Assembly: GCA_965226585.1 (NCBI GenBank)
Contig: OZ245366.1
Coordinates: forward strand, 800,001-864,000
From: Thermodesulfobacteriota bacterium
GTDB lineage: Bacteria > Desulfobacterota_D > UBA1144 > Nemesobacterales > Mycalebacteriaceae
Direction: 5' to 3'
DNA length: 64,000 bases
Under the pieces are notes generated by a model that was not told where the DNA came from, did no database searches, and saw nothing but the letters and a program-made list of their open reading frames with translations. The translations under genes and the position numbers were made by a program. Numbering within the stretch: position 1 is the first letter of the stretch; every line of letters starts with the position of its first letter. This document shows, one piece after another, positions 32,944 to 53,022 of this stretch.

Positions 32944-33110
32944 TACTGGATTCCTGCTTCCGCAGGAATGACGGGGAAGGGCAAGGAATGACGCTTCTCA
33001 CCACTCCGTCATTCCGTGTTTGTCTCCTTCCCGTCATTCCGTGCTTGACACGGAATCCAGTATTCAACTGGCTAATTAATACTGGATTCCTGCTTCCGCA
33101 GGAATGACGG
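32941..33110. repeat. Cluster of dRS3/REP-like palindromic repeats
   Basis: Identical 34-mers taatactggattcctgcttccgcaggaatgacgg at 32941 and 33077; inverted variant ccgtcattccgtgcttgacacggaatccagtatt at 33031; partial copies in between. Confidence 0.9.
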
Positions 33111-47285: not shown

Positions 47286-48013
47286 GCCCGCGCCTCCTTC
47301 ACCGTTTCTCCAAGCAGTTGCGGGATTTGCTCAAGAGACCGTATTGACGGCGTGTTGTCCGCCTCCCCTTCCCTGAGGAGCAAAAGCGATTTTATTCCGG
47401 CGTTTGTCGCCCCGATGTAGTCTTTTTCCATATCATCTCCAATGTGCAGACATTCCTCCGGTTTTGCCCCGTGTTTTTCAAGGGCGATGCGAAAGATTTC
47501 CGGAGACGGTTTTGAAAATCCCGCTTCGCTTGAAATTGTGAAAGATGAGAAATAGTTTTCCAGTTCCAGTTCTTTCAGCACCCCGTAGACGCGGGAGTCA
47601 AAGTTTGAGACGAGCATAATTTCGTAGCCCATTTTTTTAATTTTTCCAAGGGCGGAGGCGGAATCCGGAAAAGCCGTCCAAGCCCTGTTTTTGAAGTGGT
47701 CAAAAAGTTCTTCAAAGTAGGAGTCAAAGTCGTCAAACATTCCCACCCGTTCATACACATCACGCACGACATTTTTCCACCATTGTTTTTCAAGTTTTTT
47801 TCTTTCTTCCTGTGAAAACTCTCCAAACGCGAGTGGAGGCGCGGAGGCAAAAGCATGAGAGAACGCCCGTTTAATCTCCAACTCCCCCGGACTGGCGCCG
47901 TATTTTTCCGCAATTTCCGCATAAGCCGCGCCAAGCCCGTTTTTTATGTAGAAAAGCGTATCCGCCGCATCAAAGGAAACGAGTTTTATGTTTGACAGGT
48001 TGAGGTTAGCCAT
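47282..48013 (-). CDS. HAD-superfamily hydrolase (REG-2-like)
   Basis: FDAADTL, VSNFD, KPSPEIF, HIGDD...D. Confidence 0.9.
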   Translation of the reverse strand: MANLNLSNIKLVSFDAADTLFYIKNGLGAAYAEIAEKYGASPGELEIKRAFSHAFASAPPLAFGEFSQEERKKLEKQWWKNVVRDVYERVGMFDDFDSYFEELFDHFKNRAWTAFPDSASALGKIKKMGYEIMLVSNFDSRVYGVLKELELENYFSSFTISSEAGFSKPSPEIFRIALEKHGAKPEECLHIGDDMEKDYIGATNAGIKSLLLLREGEADNTPSIRSLEQIPQLLGETVKEARA

Positions 48014-48135
48014 TTGGTTTGTGGATTAGGTTATATGATTTGGGGGAAAGGGAAAATGGCGGCGGGTTGAAGTGTCTTTGTTATTACGAGTAGAATAGTA
48101 ACGGGTTGTCAAACAACTCCGGGAGGTTACTTGAT

Positions 48136-48303
48136 ATGTCTTTCACGGCTATTGTGGAGTATTGCAAGGACACGAACCTGTATGTGGGTCATATCCCCGG
48201 CTTTGCGGGAGCCCATTCTCAGGGTAAAACTCTTGATGAGTTGAACGAGAATCTAACCGAAGTGCTGTCTATGTTGCTTGAGGACGGCAGCCCCGGATTC
48301 TGA
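48136..48303 (+). CDS. hicB: Short HicB-family antitoxin (orphan, possibly truncated)
   Basis: FTAIVE....LYVGHIPGFAGAHSQGKTLDEL..NL.EVL.MLLE; GGGAGG RBS before ATG 48136. Confidence 0.8.
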   Translation: MSFTAIVEYCKDTNLYVGHIPGFAGAHSQGKTLDELNENLTEVLSMLLEDGSPGF

Positions 48304-48318
48304 AACCGCTTCCCCTCT

Positions 48319-48418
48319 GTCATTCCCGCTTCTCTCCGTCATTCCTGCGAAAGCAGGAATCCAGAGTTTCTTTCCGCGATTGTAATACTGGATTCCGTGT
48401 CGGGGCACGGAATGACGG
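48319..48418. repeat. Second cluster of the same dRS3/REP-like palindromes
   Basis: ccgtcattcctgcgaaagcaggaatccag (48336-48364) and inverted taatactggattccgtgtcggggcacggaatgacgg (48383-48418). Confidence 0.9.
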
Positions 48419-48460
48419 GAAAGGCACATCGTGCGTTGCGGAAGTGCTGTCTATTCCGGT

Positions 48461-51400
48461 TTAACTCTTTCGGGGCTTGCGTCTTTCGTTGCCGAGGAAG
48501 TCGTACCAGTCAATCCAGCCTTTGTTTTTGTATGTTTTGTTGGGGTTGGTAGGAATGTCCTTTGGGAAATTTTGTGATTTCACGTATTCGTGCCATTCTT
48601 TGTGACCTTTCAGATTCAGAGATCTTGCATATACTCGGGCTCCTTTGAAAGAACGGTATTCCCTGAGAGTTGTAGCAACATTCCCGGTTCCGAGCCAGTT
48701 GCCCCAATTAGCCCACCCCTGACTTCTGTATATTTGGTCCGGAGCAACAGGAATATCTTTTGGGAAATTGTTTGATTTTGTGTGTTTATTCCATTCTGTG
48801 GAACTTTTCAGGTTCAACCCCCGCGCATACTCTCTCGCTTCCTCAAAACTTCTATACTTTCTAAATCGGGTGGCAAGGGTTCCGGTACCAAGCCAGTCGC
48901 CATAGCCAATCCAACCTCTATCTTTATATTTGTTGTTAGGGTTGGTAGGAATGTCATCTGGAAAATCGGGTGACTTTGTGTGTTTATTCCATTCTGTGGA
49001 ACTTTTCAGTTTCAAACCCCGTGCATATTTCCGTGCCTCCCTGAAAGAGCGATATTCTCTGAGGAAAGAGGCAACAGTTCCAGTTCCGAGCCAATCACCC
49101 ATATTAATCCATCCCTTTTTCCTATAAGTCTGGTTAGGGTTGGCAGGAATATCTTTTGGGAAATTATCTGATTTTGTATGCTCTCTCCATTCTTTTTGAT
49201 TTTTCAACTTGAGAGATCGTGCGTATTTCCGTGCTTTTTCAAAAGAGCGGTATTCAATTAGGAAGGTAGCGACAACTCCAGTTCCTAGCCAGTCGCCCCA
49301 ACTATTCCAGCCTTTGTTTTTGTATGTTTTGTTGGGGTTGGTAGGAATGTCCCTCGGAAAATTATACGATTTTGTGTGCTCTTTCCATTCTTTGTAACTT
49401 TTCAGATTCAGAGATCTAGCATATTTGTGCGCTTCTTTGAAAGAATGGTATTTTCTGAGATATGAAGCAATAGTACCAGTTCCAAGCCAGTCGCCATAAC
49501 CAATCCAACCTTTGTCTTGATATTTTTTGTCAGGGGCAATGGGAATATTCTCTGGGAAATCAGATGATTGTGTGTGCTTACGCCATTCTGAATGACTATT
49601 AAGATTTAAGGATTGCGCATATTCCCTTGCTTTTTCGAATGTTTGATATTCTCTAAATCGGTAAGCAACAAATTCAGTTCCAATCCAATCGCCCATGTTA
49701 ATCCATCCTTTTTTCCTATAAGTCTGGTTAGGTTTGGTAGGAATGTCTTCTGGAAAACTGTCTGATTGCGTGTGCTTGCTCCACTCCTCCCAATTTTTCA
49801 GATTCAGAGATCTAGCATATCCCCGTGCTTCTTTGAAAGAGCGGTATTTCTTGAGAAAGGATGCAACAGTACCAGTTCCGAGCCAGTCGCCCCAGTTAGT
49901 CCAATCCTTAAATGTTAGGTGGGGACTAGCAGGAATATCATCTGGAAGTGTTTGTGCTTTCGTGTATTTGTTCCATTCTGTTCTACTTTTCAGATTCAGA
50001 GATCTAGCATATTCCCGTGCTTCTTTGAAAGAACGATACTTTCTGAGAAAGGTAGCAACATTCCCGGTTCCGAGCCAGTTGCCCCAATTAGCCCACCCCT
50101 GACTTCTGTATATTTGGTCCGGAGCAACAGGAATATCTTTTGGGAAATTGTTTGATTTTGTGTGTTTATTCCATTCTGTGGAACTTTTCAGTTTCAACCC
50201 CCGCGCATACTCTCTCGCCTCCTCAAACCCCCTCCAATTCACTTTCGCCGCTTTCCGCCAAATCTCTGTTTCAATGGATTTGGAAAATTCATTAAAACTG
50301 AGATTCACCCCTGCGGGAACATCGCCACTTATGGAAATGAGTTTTCCCTTGTGTTTCCTGCCTTCCGTAACTGCGCGGAAGTAGTCTTTTATCCTCTCAT
50401 CCTGAGTTGACAGAGCCGTTATCTGACTGGCAATTTTCTTAAACGCCGTGCTTTTTGCGAACTCGTCAAAACTCACCCCGTTTGGCACAACAATCGGCAA
50501 AAGTATGTAGCCCTTCTCTTTTCCCGCCGATGGACGCATCGCCCTTCCCGCCGCTTGCACAATATCCACAACACTCTGCTTCGGGTCAGCAAACAAAACA
50601 CAATCAATCGCCGGAACATCAACACCCTCCGTTAAACATCTGGCGTTTGTTATAAGCGAGCGTCTGGACTTCTCAAAATCATGCATAACCTCCGTTCGCT
50701 GTCCGGTGGAGAGTTCACTTGAAATGTGAAAGTTCTCAATTCCCGTTTTAAGAACCCGCGCTTTCAAAAGTTCGTTTTGCTGTAATTCAAAATCCTTTGC
50801 CGACCGTATGCTCCGGTGAAAAGAAACCGCATGTTTTATCCGGTGCTTTTTGAAAACTTTTTCAAGCGCAATCCCCGCCGCAAGAGACGCGGATTCCTGC
50901 GTTTTGAGTTCCCGCGAATGGTCTTTGACAAAACGGTTCTTCTTCACAATGTCCCGTATCTGCGGGTCGCCAATCAAAAGCGTTAAAATCTCGTAGTCGC
51001 AAATAATGCCGTCATCAATGGCTTGTTTGAATGTGAGTTGATAAAAACAGTCGCCGTAGACTCTTTTGTCATCCATTGAGAGAACCTCTTCGTTTTTCCC
51101 GTGTAAAACTCTTTCTGTTGCCGTCATAAAAAGCCGTTTGCTGATTTCCAGTTTTCTGTCGTCAAGCAAGGTCGCAAAAGCGGAACTCTTTTCACCAACC
51201 GTTTTATGCGCTTCATCCAAAATACAAAGGTCAATTTTCCGTCCGCTTTTCTTCGCCGCAACAGCAAGGCGCGGACTGCTCTGATAGGTTGTGAAAATCA
51301 CCTTCGGAGCGGATGTTTTTCTTTTCAGAAAGTCCGCAATCTCTTCTTCTTTCGTTGTTGTGGGAATGCCCGTTTCGTATGTGCTTGAAACAAAACTGTC

Positions 51401-52216
51401 CACCTTGCCAACCGTTTCATCACTGCACACACAAAGCCAGTCAGGGGTTATGCCGCCCGCAACATATTCGCGAGTCCAATCTTTAACGCTCTGCCGTATC
51501 AACATAAGACTCGGAACGGCAAGAATTATCGTTTTTGCCCCAAGCGATTCCGCCGCCCAGAAAGCCGTGAGACTTTTGCCGGACGCGCACGGCATAATCA
51601 TTCTGCCCCGCCGGTTTTTCTCATCAAGGTAATGCGCGCGGATGTTCTTTACCGCCTCTTTCTGGTGTTTTCTCGGTTTGCGCGCTTTTGGTGTGTGTGA
51701 TTTATTCGCGCAGTTCGCCCTGATTGCCGCCCAGTCTTCGGTCTCAAGTTCCAGCCATCGGGAAAGCCCTATCTCCACAACATTTTTGCCAAGCAGTTTC
51801 CTTTTCCGCACAGGTTTTAATGTTGTGTGAGCAACAACACCCAGCGTTATTCCCCTGCAGTGTGTAAAAGACAGGTGCGCAAACTTTGCCAAATCCCTTG
51901 TATTCAGGGCAGTTTCTTTGTCAGACCTGTATTTCGCCTGTATTGCCCAGAACTCTCCGCCGTGCGTCTCGGCTATTAAGTCTATGCCCTCATCATTTGC
52001 GGGCAGATTCAGTTTCTTTGCCACATCTCGCGGAACATCGGCGAGCAGCCACACACTCGACAGTTTTGTCCGGTATTCAGGGTGAACAGTCAGGTATGAC
52101 TGAACCAGTTTTTCAAAAAGGTCGCCCTTTTCTTTCGTGGCGGCGAGTCCGTCCGCATAAGAGACAAATTGCTCCCAGTTGGAACATCTACCGAGGAATT
52201 TTGAGGCGTTTTCCAT
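48461..52216 (-). CDS. Mrr-like endonuclease + SF2 (DEAH) helicase + nine ~66-aa C-terminal repeats (resembling the phage-integrase repeat unit)
   Basis: KGDLFE..DEGIDLIA..WAIQAKY; SGKS, DEAH, MTAT, LTEGVDVPAID, QAAGRAMR; repeats YRSF.EA..YARSL.LK...EW...P..IP..P...Y...GW...GDWLG. Confidence 0.88.
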   Translation of the reverse strand: MENASKFLGRCSNWEQFVSYADGLAATKEKGDLFEKLVQSYLTVHPEYRTKLSSVWLLADVPRDVAKKLNLPANDEGIDLIAETHGGEFWAIQAKYRSDKETALNTRDLAKFAHLSFTHCRGITLGVVAHTTLKPVRKRKLLGKNVVEIGLSRWLELETEDWAAIRANCANKSHTPKARKPRKHQKEAVKNIRAHYLDEKNRRGRMIMPCASGKSLTAFWAAESLGAKTIILAVPSLMLIRQSVKDWTREYVAGGITPDWLCVCSDETVGKVDSFVSSTYETGIPTTTKEEEIADFLKRKTSAPKVIFTTYQSSPRLAVAAKKSGRKIDLCILDEAHKTVGEKSSAFATLLDDRKLEISKRLFMTATERVLHGKNEEVLSMDDKRVYGDCFYQLTFKQAIDDGIICDYEILTLLIGDPQIRDIVKKNRFVKDHSRELKTQESASLAAGIALEKVFKKHRIKHAVSFHRSIRSAKDFELQQNELLKARVLKTGIENFHISSELSTGQRTEVMHDFEKSRRSLITNARCLTEGVDVPAIDCVLFADPKQSVVDIVQAAGRAMRPSAGKEKGYILLPIVVPNGVSFDEFAKSTAFKKIASQITALSTQDERIKDYFRAVTEGRKHKGKLISISGDVPAGVNLSFNEFSKSIETEIWRKAAKVNWRGFEEAREYARGLKLKSSTEWNKHTKSNNFPKDIPVAPDQIYRSQGWANWGNWLGTGNVATFLRKYRSFKEAREYARSLNLKSRTEWNKYTKAQTLPDDIPASPHLTFKDWTNWGDWLGTGTVASFLKKYRSFKEARGYARSLNLKNWEEWSKHTQSDSFPEDIPTKPNQTYRKKGWINMGDWIGTEFVAYRFREYQTFEKAREYAQSLNLNSHSEWRKHTQSSDFPENIPIAPDKKYQDKGWIGYGDWLGTGTIASYLRKYHSFKEAHKYARSLNLKSYKEWKEHTKSYNFPRDIPTNPNKTYKNKGWNSWGDWLGTGVVATFLIEYRSFEKARKYARSLKLKNQKEWREHTKSDNFPKDIPANPNQTYRKKGWINMGDWLGTGTVASFLREYRSFREARKYARGLKLKSSTEWNKHTKSPDFPDDIPTNPNNKYKDRGWIGYGDWLGTGTLATRFRKYRSFEEAREYARGLNLKSSTEWNKHTKSNNFPKDIPVAPDQIYRSQGWANWGNWLGTGNVATTLREYRSFKGARVYARSLNLKGHKEWHEYVKSQNFPKDIPTNPNKTYKNKGWIDWYDFLGNERRKPRKS
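48464..50236 (-). repeat. Coding array of nine 198-bp units (unit 2 is 192 bp)
   Basis: 48672-48847 vs 50052-50227: 176 bp with 2 mismatches, offset 1380 = 6x198+192. Confidence 0.93.
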
Positions 52217-52236
52217 TTGCGGAACGGTGGAAATCT

Positions 52237-53022
52237 CTACCCCATCTTTTTCTCATTCGCCTTCAACACCTGCTTTGCGGTGGTGGCGAGTTCGGAGTTC
52301 GGGTCTTTTGAAATTACGGCTTCAAAATCCGCTTTCGCTTTCGCGAATTCTCCCAGTTTCTGAAACTCAGTCGCCCTCGCGAAAAGAGCTTTTGTAAATT
52401 CAGGATTTACCTCAAACGCCTTGCCGAAATCCTCAGCCGCCCTCTTGTTGTTGCCGAGGCTGTCATACACATGCCCCCTGCTGTATAAACTCTCAAAATC
52501 ACGGGGATTTATTTCAACCGCCCTGTCGTAGTCCTTCAGAGCGTTGTCATAGTCTCTCAAAAGGTTGTGATAGGTGGTCGCCCGGTTGTAAAACGCTTCG
52601 CCGTTTTCCGGCTCCATCTCAATCGCCTTGTCATAATCCGCTATGGCAAGTTTGTATTTTCCAAGCCGCCCGTAGGCGGTTCCCCTGCTGACATACGTTC
52701 CGGCAAAATCAGGCATAATCTCTATGACCTTGTTGAAGTCATCTATCGCCGGGCTGTGGTCTCCAAGATCCACAAGCAGCGAACCCCTGTTGTAAAACGC
52801 CTGAGCGTATCCGTCTTTGAGTTCAACGGCTTTTGTGTAACTGGCAATCGCTTCGCGCAGTTTGCCCTTCATGGACAGCGCGACCCCAAGGTTGTATCGC
52901 ACATCCGGATGCTCCGGATTCAGTTCAATCGCCTTTTCATAACTTTCTATCGCCGCATCCCACTTTCCGGAGCCCGCGCTCTCGTTACCTTTTTTGAAAA
53001 AACCGTCAAAATTCTCACTCAT
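52237..53022 (-). CDS. Tetratricopeptide repeat protein (about 7 TPRs)
   Basis: Repeated AFYNRG...AI.DY.KAIEL.P units. Confidence 0.92.
   Translation of the reverse strand: MSENFDGFFKKGNESAGSGKWDAAIESYEKAIELNPEHPDVRYNLGVALSMKGKLREAIASYTKAVELKDGYAQAFYNRGSLLVDLGDHSPAIDDFNKVIEIMPDFAGTYVSRGTAYGRLGKYKLAIADYDKAIEMEPENGEAFYNRATTYHNLLRDYDNALKDYDRAVEINPRDFESLYSRGHVYDSLGNNKRAAEDFGKAFEVNPEFTKALFARATEFQKLGEFAKAKADFEAVISKDPNSELATTAKQVLKANEKKMG

Follow-up and report, generated by a model that had tools for sequence, protein, structure and literature searches.

Type ISP restriction enzymes are composed of a nuclease and motor followed by a methylase and then a recognition domain, and their cutting requires two head-to-head sites (PMC3874165). 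A methylase-less arrangement of nuclease, SF2 motor and C-terminal recognition part is described for SauUSI (10.1101/2025.10.16.682607), and the GIY-YIG and HNH homing endonucleases with NUMOD combine a nuclease with a string of small DNA-binding modules (PMC3664794). TALE, STAR and other DNA-binding tandem repeats consist of a conserved scaffold with hypervariable positions (PMC11417379), and the PRDM9 array is a coding minisatellite of variable copy number in which change falls on few positions per unit (PMC3890296). The gene described here, located at 48461..52216 on the minus strand of the window (the whole 64,000-nucleotide stretch of DNA that was analysed), encodes a 1251-aa protein (P0001) comprising a nuclease, an SF2 motor and nine repeats, without a methylase. 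The motor is of a known kind, and the repeat is catalogued in Pfam (INT_rpt, PF14882). In the literature searched, which was mainly open-access, we found no functional study or solved fold of the repeat or the architecture, and no binding, cutting or defence data for the repeat. PF14882 is listed in a modelling table (PMC8078820), INT_rpt is not named in the main text of PMC11417379, and the accessible text of the GMT preprint holds no discussion of the repeat.

Architecture of the protein and spread of the repeat

The nuclease is an Mrr-type domain at residues 44-134 (51815..52087, minus strand; Pfam Mrr_cat_2, E 6.5e-14), and its motif D79..Q93-x-K95 lines up with the LlaBIII motif in an alignment to 4xqk. 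It is followed by an SF2 helicase-like motor at residues 180-562 (50531..51679, minus strand; ResIII, E 5e-13; Helicase_C, E 5e-14), in which DEAH is intact and the P-loop reads CASGKS; the first P-loop glycine is changed to alanine in four of the five genus genes. Residues 27-638 align to the Type ISP enzymes LlaBIII (E 5e-65) and LlaGI (E 9e-49). The array, which makes up the last 591 residues of the ORF, starts at the point where the methylase-TRD begins in these two enzymes, both of which match the N-terminal 640 aa. Beyond residues 611-667 no PADLOC or LlaBIII match was obtained, the remainder being repeats. Like LlaBIII, the protein has an Mrr nuclease with a D..QxK motif and then an SF2 translocase in one chain, but the gamma adenine methyltransferase is missing from this chain, and the TRD that reads a short asymmetric site is replaced by the nine repeats. 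Judged from its sequence, the product joins a Type ISP-like nuclease to an ATP motor and lacks a methylase, and the combination falls outside Type ISP on two defining features. SauUSI shares the methylase-less layout with a C-terminal recognition part, whereas here the nuclease is of the Mrr type and a repeat array stands where SauUSI has one TRD, and any dependence on modification would be putative here.

INT_rpt matched the array with 48.6-59.2 bits against a cut-off of 26.5, and the ESM Atlas neighbours of the repeat were INT_rpt clusters (0.93-0.94). The best stretches reach only model positions 1-32 of 55, and the 66-aa unit differs from INT_rpt in having an added linker patch. No integrase fusion was found among the scanned proteins, the association resting on the Pfam name, and a PF14882 profile search of genomes was uninformative, with no match anywhere, G000 included. 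No TALE or C2H2 homology was detected in Pfam matches up to E 1 on the protein, and no Cys/His ligand pattern is present in the unit. The HA repeat (PF03457) gave no Pfam match on the protein, and a profile comparison with one HA sequence yielded 21% probability over 17 columns; HA did not appear among the listed results of the fold searches either. Pfam matches of the array to GIDA_C_1st, SpmSyn_N and ExoI_C contained no passing stretch and were set aside as summed repeat noise.

Homologs numbered 2760 among 7990 scored candidates, and a one-unit profile at E 0.001 collected 8193 clusters at 50% identity. The repeat was located in 386 stretches of genome contigs and 14 viral loci, with unit number ranging from 3 to at least 14 across arrays. 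A complete nuclease-motor-array ORF was present in 41 of the 94 loci examined, with the D..Q-x-K motif in all of them, and the motif was kept in 42 of 42 nuclease-plus-motor ORFs among these 94 loci. In a second layout (six of seven tested), an N-terminal array is joined to an SF2 motor and Methyltransf_8; the loci of this kind (L033, L041, L057, L101, L105 and L110) lie in bacteria and on large viral contigs. Further layouts were GIY-YIG with four units (L112), four units with HNH (L108) and array-only proteins. The viral relatives share the layout of a nuclease and a string of modules with NUMOD homing endonucleases, but the protein here has an ATP motor and the repeat has no NUMOD match. 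The viral four-repeat nucleases (HNH at L108 6881-8131, GIY-YIG at L112 3847-4881) are the smallest candidates for specificity work. On a 501-kb viral contig (L102 6461-13395), six consecutive ORFs are built of the repeat, some of them combining it with zinc-finger-like modules of DUF723 and with a C-terminal tail that they share. A Nitrosopumilus contig (L073 1-9055) has a run of at least seven array ORFs, which may be a single very long array broken by frameshifts.

Mosaic units and turnover of the array

The nine units run from 50236 to 48464 on the minus strand with a period of 198 nt (66 aa). At positions 18-20 and 37-42, respectively, they read SST and VAPDQI in unit 1 (50039..50236), SRT and ASPHLT in unit 2 (49847..50038; 64 aa, 192 nt), NWE and TKPNQT in unit 3 (49649..49846), SHS and IAPDKK in unit 4 (49451..49648), SYK and TNPNKT in unit 5 (49253..49450), NQK and ANPNQT in unit 6 (49055..49252), SST and TNPNNK in unit 7 (48857..49054), SST and VAPDQI in unit 8 (48659..48856), a near copy of unit 1, and GHK and TNPNKT in the terminal unit 9 (48464..48658), which is without the linker patch. 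This is exactly the listing of the earlier note, which had described two variable patches per unit. Both patches are real, but the count was wrong: a third patch at positions 59-63 had been overlooked. On the minus strand of unit 1, patch 1 (positions 18-23, variable at 19, 20 and 23) lies at 50168..50185, patch 2 (positions 37-42, variable at 37, 38, 40 and 41) at 50111..50128 and patch 3 (positions 59-64, variable at 59, 62 and 63) at 50045..50062.

AlphaFold2 modelled the units confidently (pLDDT 85 with nine units and 90 with two), with predicted helices at 4-13, 19-26, 39-42 and 51-55 and a turn near 62-64. In these models patch 1 is at the start of helix 19-26, patch 2 at the start of helix 39-42, and patch 3 is a short helical turn within the linker. 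The overall arrangement of the modelled array was undefined (pTM 0.32), and four-helix units with flexible relative orientation are predicted. Foldseek searches with the nine-unit and the two-unit model found nothing at E 0.001, the best result of the VIA fold search reached only Z 3.2 (rmsd 3.0, 55 aligned), and sequence searches of solved chains gave no match to the repeat, nulls that do not make the repeat fold new.

The DNA comparison confirmed that the array is mosaic. Units 1 and 8 share 176 bp (48672..48847, matching 50052-50227) with exactly 2 mismatches (48812 and 48839), as had been claimed, and 140 nt of this block are identical; the identical 47 nt reported for units 5 and 9 were likewise recovered (48514..48560 and 49306-49352) and carry patch 2 only. 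Patch 1 is common to units 1, 7 and 8, and patch 2 to units 5 and 9. Units 1 and 7 differ at 1 of 39 nt over codons 16-28, yet at 41 of 102 over codons 29-62; for units 5 and 9 the counts are 1 of 48 nt in codons 33-48 and 14 of 48 in codons 17-32. The nearest neighbour of unit 7 changes along its length, from unit 8 at 18-32 to unit 9 at 33-48 and unit 4 at 49-57. The peptides said to be shared between units all exist, and that of units 3 and 6 differs at 3 of 48 nt. The peptide of units 4 and 7 differs at 5 of 39 nt and in 5 of 12 degenerate codons, which does not stand out from the background synonymous divergence of 45% (494 of 1106 same-residue codons), and is near the family consensus. 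Therefore, units 4 and 7 are not evidence of exchange, and this example, rejected as a conversion tract, fails at the DNA level.

The recombination tests proposed with the earlier claim gave a divided result. The codon-level run test was significant (p 0.0005, 2000 permutations) and remained so after units 8 and 9 were dropped, but the PHI-like test was weaker, with p 0.032 that rose to 0.11 without unit 8 and to 0.16 without units 8 and 9. The codon-level run test was taken instead of the nucleotide-level one because the latter is inflated by codon structure. A run test on silent sites only (12 sites) gave p 0.095, and with too few sites it was not significant in five of six sets. Tracts that carry single patches support the proposed sub-repeat exchange between units. 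Moreover, the nearest unit lies in the same gene for 33 of 35 genus units, so that the arrays are homogenised lineage by lineage. The scaffold of the G005 array is uniform and bears DNA-identical patch alleles in cross-wise combinations, and such combinations were found in four of the eight arrays with repeated DNA-identical alleles at both patches (109 arrays screened).

Misassembly of the duplications was considered and rejected, as far as the contigs tell. Contigs from the runs X1 and X2 extend over most of the array, their letters all agree with the window, and the shared block merges into one 135-nt record at double depth (27.4 versus 13.6-14.5, and 35.6 versus 17.3-19). X1 and X2 represent one sample, perhaps the source of the window; no single piece spans the full array, and X1 joints at depth 3 were attributed to repeats of other organisms.

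A strain from a different study (X4/X5) matches the window at 97.6% in the motor, with 35 mismatches in 1458 nt, and an X4 contig bridges its gene to the same upstream TPR gene. The X4/X5 contig departs from the window at 50201, within unit 1, where 235 nt are unlike; the first 30 of these letters hold 11 differences, and SAN replaces SST (counted and translated by hand). A second X4 piece is identical over 48477-48532 (56 nt) and then becomes unlike exactly at patch 2, so that by hand translation the last unit has ATPKNV where the window has TNPNKT. X4/X5 are mostly without cover over the array and only contig loose ends were used; we infer from similar depth that both pieces belong to one strain. 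Invariance of the arrays among strains, which would have spoken against a diversifying specificity, was not observed: a strain about 98% identical has different residues in its patches at this locus.

Within the genus, the gene occurs in four of five genomes, with 3, 6, 8 and 9 units, differing patches and 70-75% identity in the N-terminal (motor) part; it was not matched in G002, which is 95% complete. In three relatives the gene in front of it is gyrase-like, a name taken from the sequence alone, and in one it is a fumarase gene; the arrays of the three orthologs that share a preceding gene are unrelated.

Several features of the surroundings were also recorded. The slot between the TPR gene and a HAD hydrolase (window 48013-52237; L115 1759-3952; L116) is variable: it is empty in G001, in G005 it contains two genes recognised by eye as ankyrin-like repeat genes, and here it is taken by the nuclease-motor gene. 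In the TPR gene, at about 52618-52651 of the window, high contig depth and many loose ends point to a segment common to many other sequences of the runs. A REP-like palindromic element lies just past the stop of the repeat gene (48338-48362) and again at 32948-32972 and 33084-33108; it has very high contig depth and 148 copies in G000 at no more than 2 mismatches. A 55-aa orphan HicB-like/UPF0150 ORF (E 5e-8) lies on the plus strand at 48136-48303, flanked by the HAD hydrolase and the repeat gene.

Variability and selection at the patches across the family

Across 120 proteins (1291 units), the ratio of within- to between-protein diversity was 0.90-0.97 at positions 19, 20, 23, 37, 38, 40, 41, 62 and 63, and 0.49-0.88 at the other 14 variable positions, which are partly homogenised. 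The third patch (59/62/63) varies like the other two. In 117 other proteins, outside the genus set, the patch positions that had been fixed earlier escape homogenisation (p 4e-5, 8 versus 25 positions, with proteins and positions partly dependent). This a-priori test replaces a bootstrap over positions, because the positions of the bootstrap had been picked after the data were seen.

At the nine positions listed earlier, the ratio of pN to pooled pS was 1.92 (95% CI 1.33-3.46) in 9 young arrays, 1.25 (CI 1.04-1.56) in 20 arrays and, at a looser cut, 1.12 (CI 0.95-1.35) in 27 arrays; the scaffold stayed at 0.33 at all three cuts. The estimate falls as saturation grows, counting methods ignore recombination, and the intervals for patch 3 include 1. 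The codon analyses were carried out without L021, L103 and L075 (duplicates or pieces of the same assembly), and pN/pS also without G000. The results support the diversifying selection on the patches that the earlier note had expected, as a family-wide signal in the codon data, but it is not measurable in the old array of the window, where pN/pS was 0.73 for the patches and 0.34 for the scaffold.

The patches are rich in R (13.6%), N (13.0%), T (9.6%), S (8.7%) and Q (8.3%), and other variable sites in K (22.8%), E (11.5%) and A (10.4%). Residues often used for reading bases include R, N, Q, T and S. The net charge per unit is +3.9. As in TALE-like and zinc-finger-like readers, variation in the repeat gathers at a small number of positions that show positive selection. 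In 1282 units we counted 1017 distinct six-residue patch words, a large alphabet, in which the repeat resembles zinc fingers more than the di-residues of TALEs. With PRDM9 and C2H2 arrays the repeat shares minisatellite-like copy number, concentrated change and bead-like units, but it has no homology to them, no metal ligands, a 66-aa unit and three patches, and its DNA reading is putative. With TALE and STAR it shares the conserved scaffold and hypervariable positions, whereas its unit is longer, about ten positions vary without a small alphabet, and no rigid solenoid is predicted.

A putative sequence-reading array and its alternatives

We consider it fairly probable that a zinc-finger-like, nucleic-acid-reading array re-aims a methylase-less, restriction-like enzyme. 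In this reading the nine repeats are likely arranged like beads on a string and recognise nucleic-acid sequence, a few bases probably falling to the three variable patches of each unit. DNA would be the ligand, gripped by the basic scaffold of each unit while the patches read bases, and the array may bind a long or partly degenerate site. Such a concatenated site could be so long that it does not occur in the host. The host would then be spared, and site length would take the place of methylation in self-protection. Binding would start ATP-driven translocation and then nuclease cutting, by analogy with Type ISP enzymes. Recombination among the 198-nt copies may make new specificities as targets escape, in a way similar to that described for the PRDM9 array (PMC3890296), and a swap of patches from unit to unit would redirect the enzyme as foreign DNA changes, in a presumed defence role.

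The architecture, the turnover in a close strain, the selection signal and residue make-up of the patches and the fusion of the repeat to GIY-YIG, HNH and methyltransferase domains argue for a sequence-reading array; the mosaic tracts and the lack of a neighbouring methylase are observed as well. Against it stand the pN/pS below 1 in this array, the weak PHI-like test, and the intervals that include 1 at the looser cut and for patch 3. The diversity of patch words speaks against a small code, unlike the small RVD alphabet of TALEs, and the aromatic content of the patches (7.4% versus 0.5%) would fit protein or single-strand binding too. The neighbours of 20 well-flanked loci are mostly housekeeping genes, which counts against a defence role; a plausible defence-like neighbour was seen in 7 of the 20, a count without a background control. 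The weak points are how self would be told from non-self and the requirement of Type ISP cutting for two head-to-head sites, which would be difficult to satisfy if the site is very long.

The main rival, which we regard as improbable but worth weighing, is a Type IV-like reader whose repeats recognise modified bases or unusual phage DNA structures in short contexts, in the manner of the SauUSI TRD, with the patches tuning context or modification. It would solve self/non-self without a long site, and SauUSI provides a nuclease-motor-TRD precedent (10.1101/2025.10.16.682607). It also agrees with the absence of a methylase from the gene and from the 124 neighbour ORFs scanned with PADLOC and Pfam at those 20 of the 41 loci that have 2.5 kb of flank on either side; G000 has four methylase-like ORFs elsewhere by a motif screen. 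The PADLOC Type IV matches of the protein are weak (E 2e-4) and cover the motor only, and the Pfam and PADLOC scans matched no modification-reading domain in it. That the same repeat is found on GIY-YIG and HNH nucleases and on methyltransferases argues against such a reader, and hundreds of patch words under diversifying selection exceed the need of a few modifications.

Protein-binding immune repeats also show a homogenised scaffold with diversifying patches. The array might thus act like a diversifying LRR, TPR or WD40 sensor of phage proteins that switches on the nuclease-motor, with which the aromatic residues at 51 and 63 would be compatible. We judge this unlikely, considering that the units are basic with patches rich in R, N, T, S and Q, that every identified catalytic partner acts on nucleic acid, and that the array sits in the TRD position. 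Slightly less likely still is a non-specific nucleic-acid clamp for affinity or processivity, with the patches as a tolerant surface and the mosaic as a by-product of tandem recombination. The low pN/pS of this array, the variable unit number and the fact that tandem DNA recombines without selection would fit it, but other surface sites are homogenised where the patches are not, pN/pS exceeds 1 in young arrays, and the residue make-up of the patches is unlike that of ordinary surface sites. A selfish homing-like gene, whose array reads a long site in a conserved neighbour gene and whose cut spreads the gene, is very unlikely: the resemblance of the GIY-YIG and HNH fusions to homing endonucleases (PMC3664794), the different places of the gene in the genus and the slot empty in G001 speak for it, but the code changes while the neighbour stays, both in the three orthologs behind the same gene and in the close strain at the same locus.

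The favoured reading, a zinc-finger-like, re-aimable array, has a bolder form, which is possible though doubtful: the repeat, with its roughly 8,000 sequence clusters, would be a new class of programmable DNA-reading module without kinship to zinc fingers or TALEs, in which three patches per unit specify bases, and recombination of the patches would re-target a methylase-free nuclease-motor to long foreign sites, providing a heritable, protein-encoded memory of targets. Few modular DNA-reading repeat families are known, namely zinc fingers, TALEs and a few recent ones. If the reading holds, the repeat would represent a widespread prokaryotic family with zinc-finger-like evolution and thousands of natural arrays to decode. 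Its fusions to nucleases, motors and methyltransferases would then imply a new defence logic, restriction without methylation, and the repeat may offer a new programmable binder.
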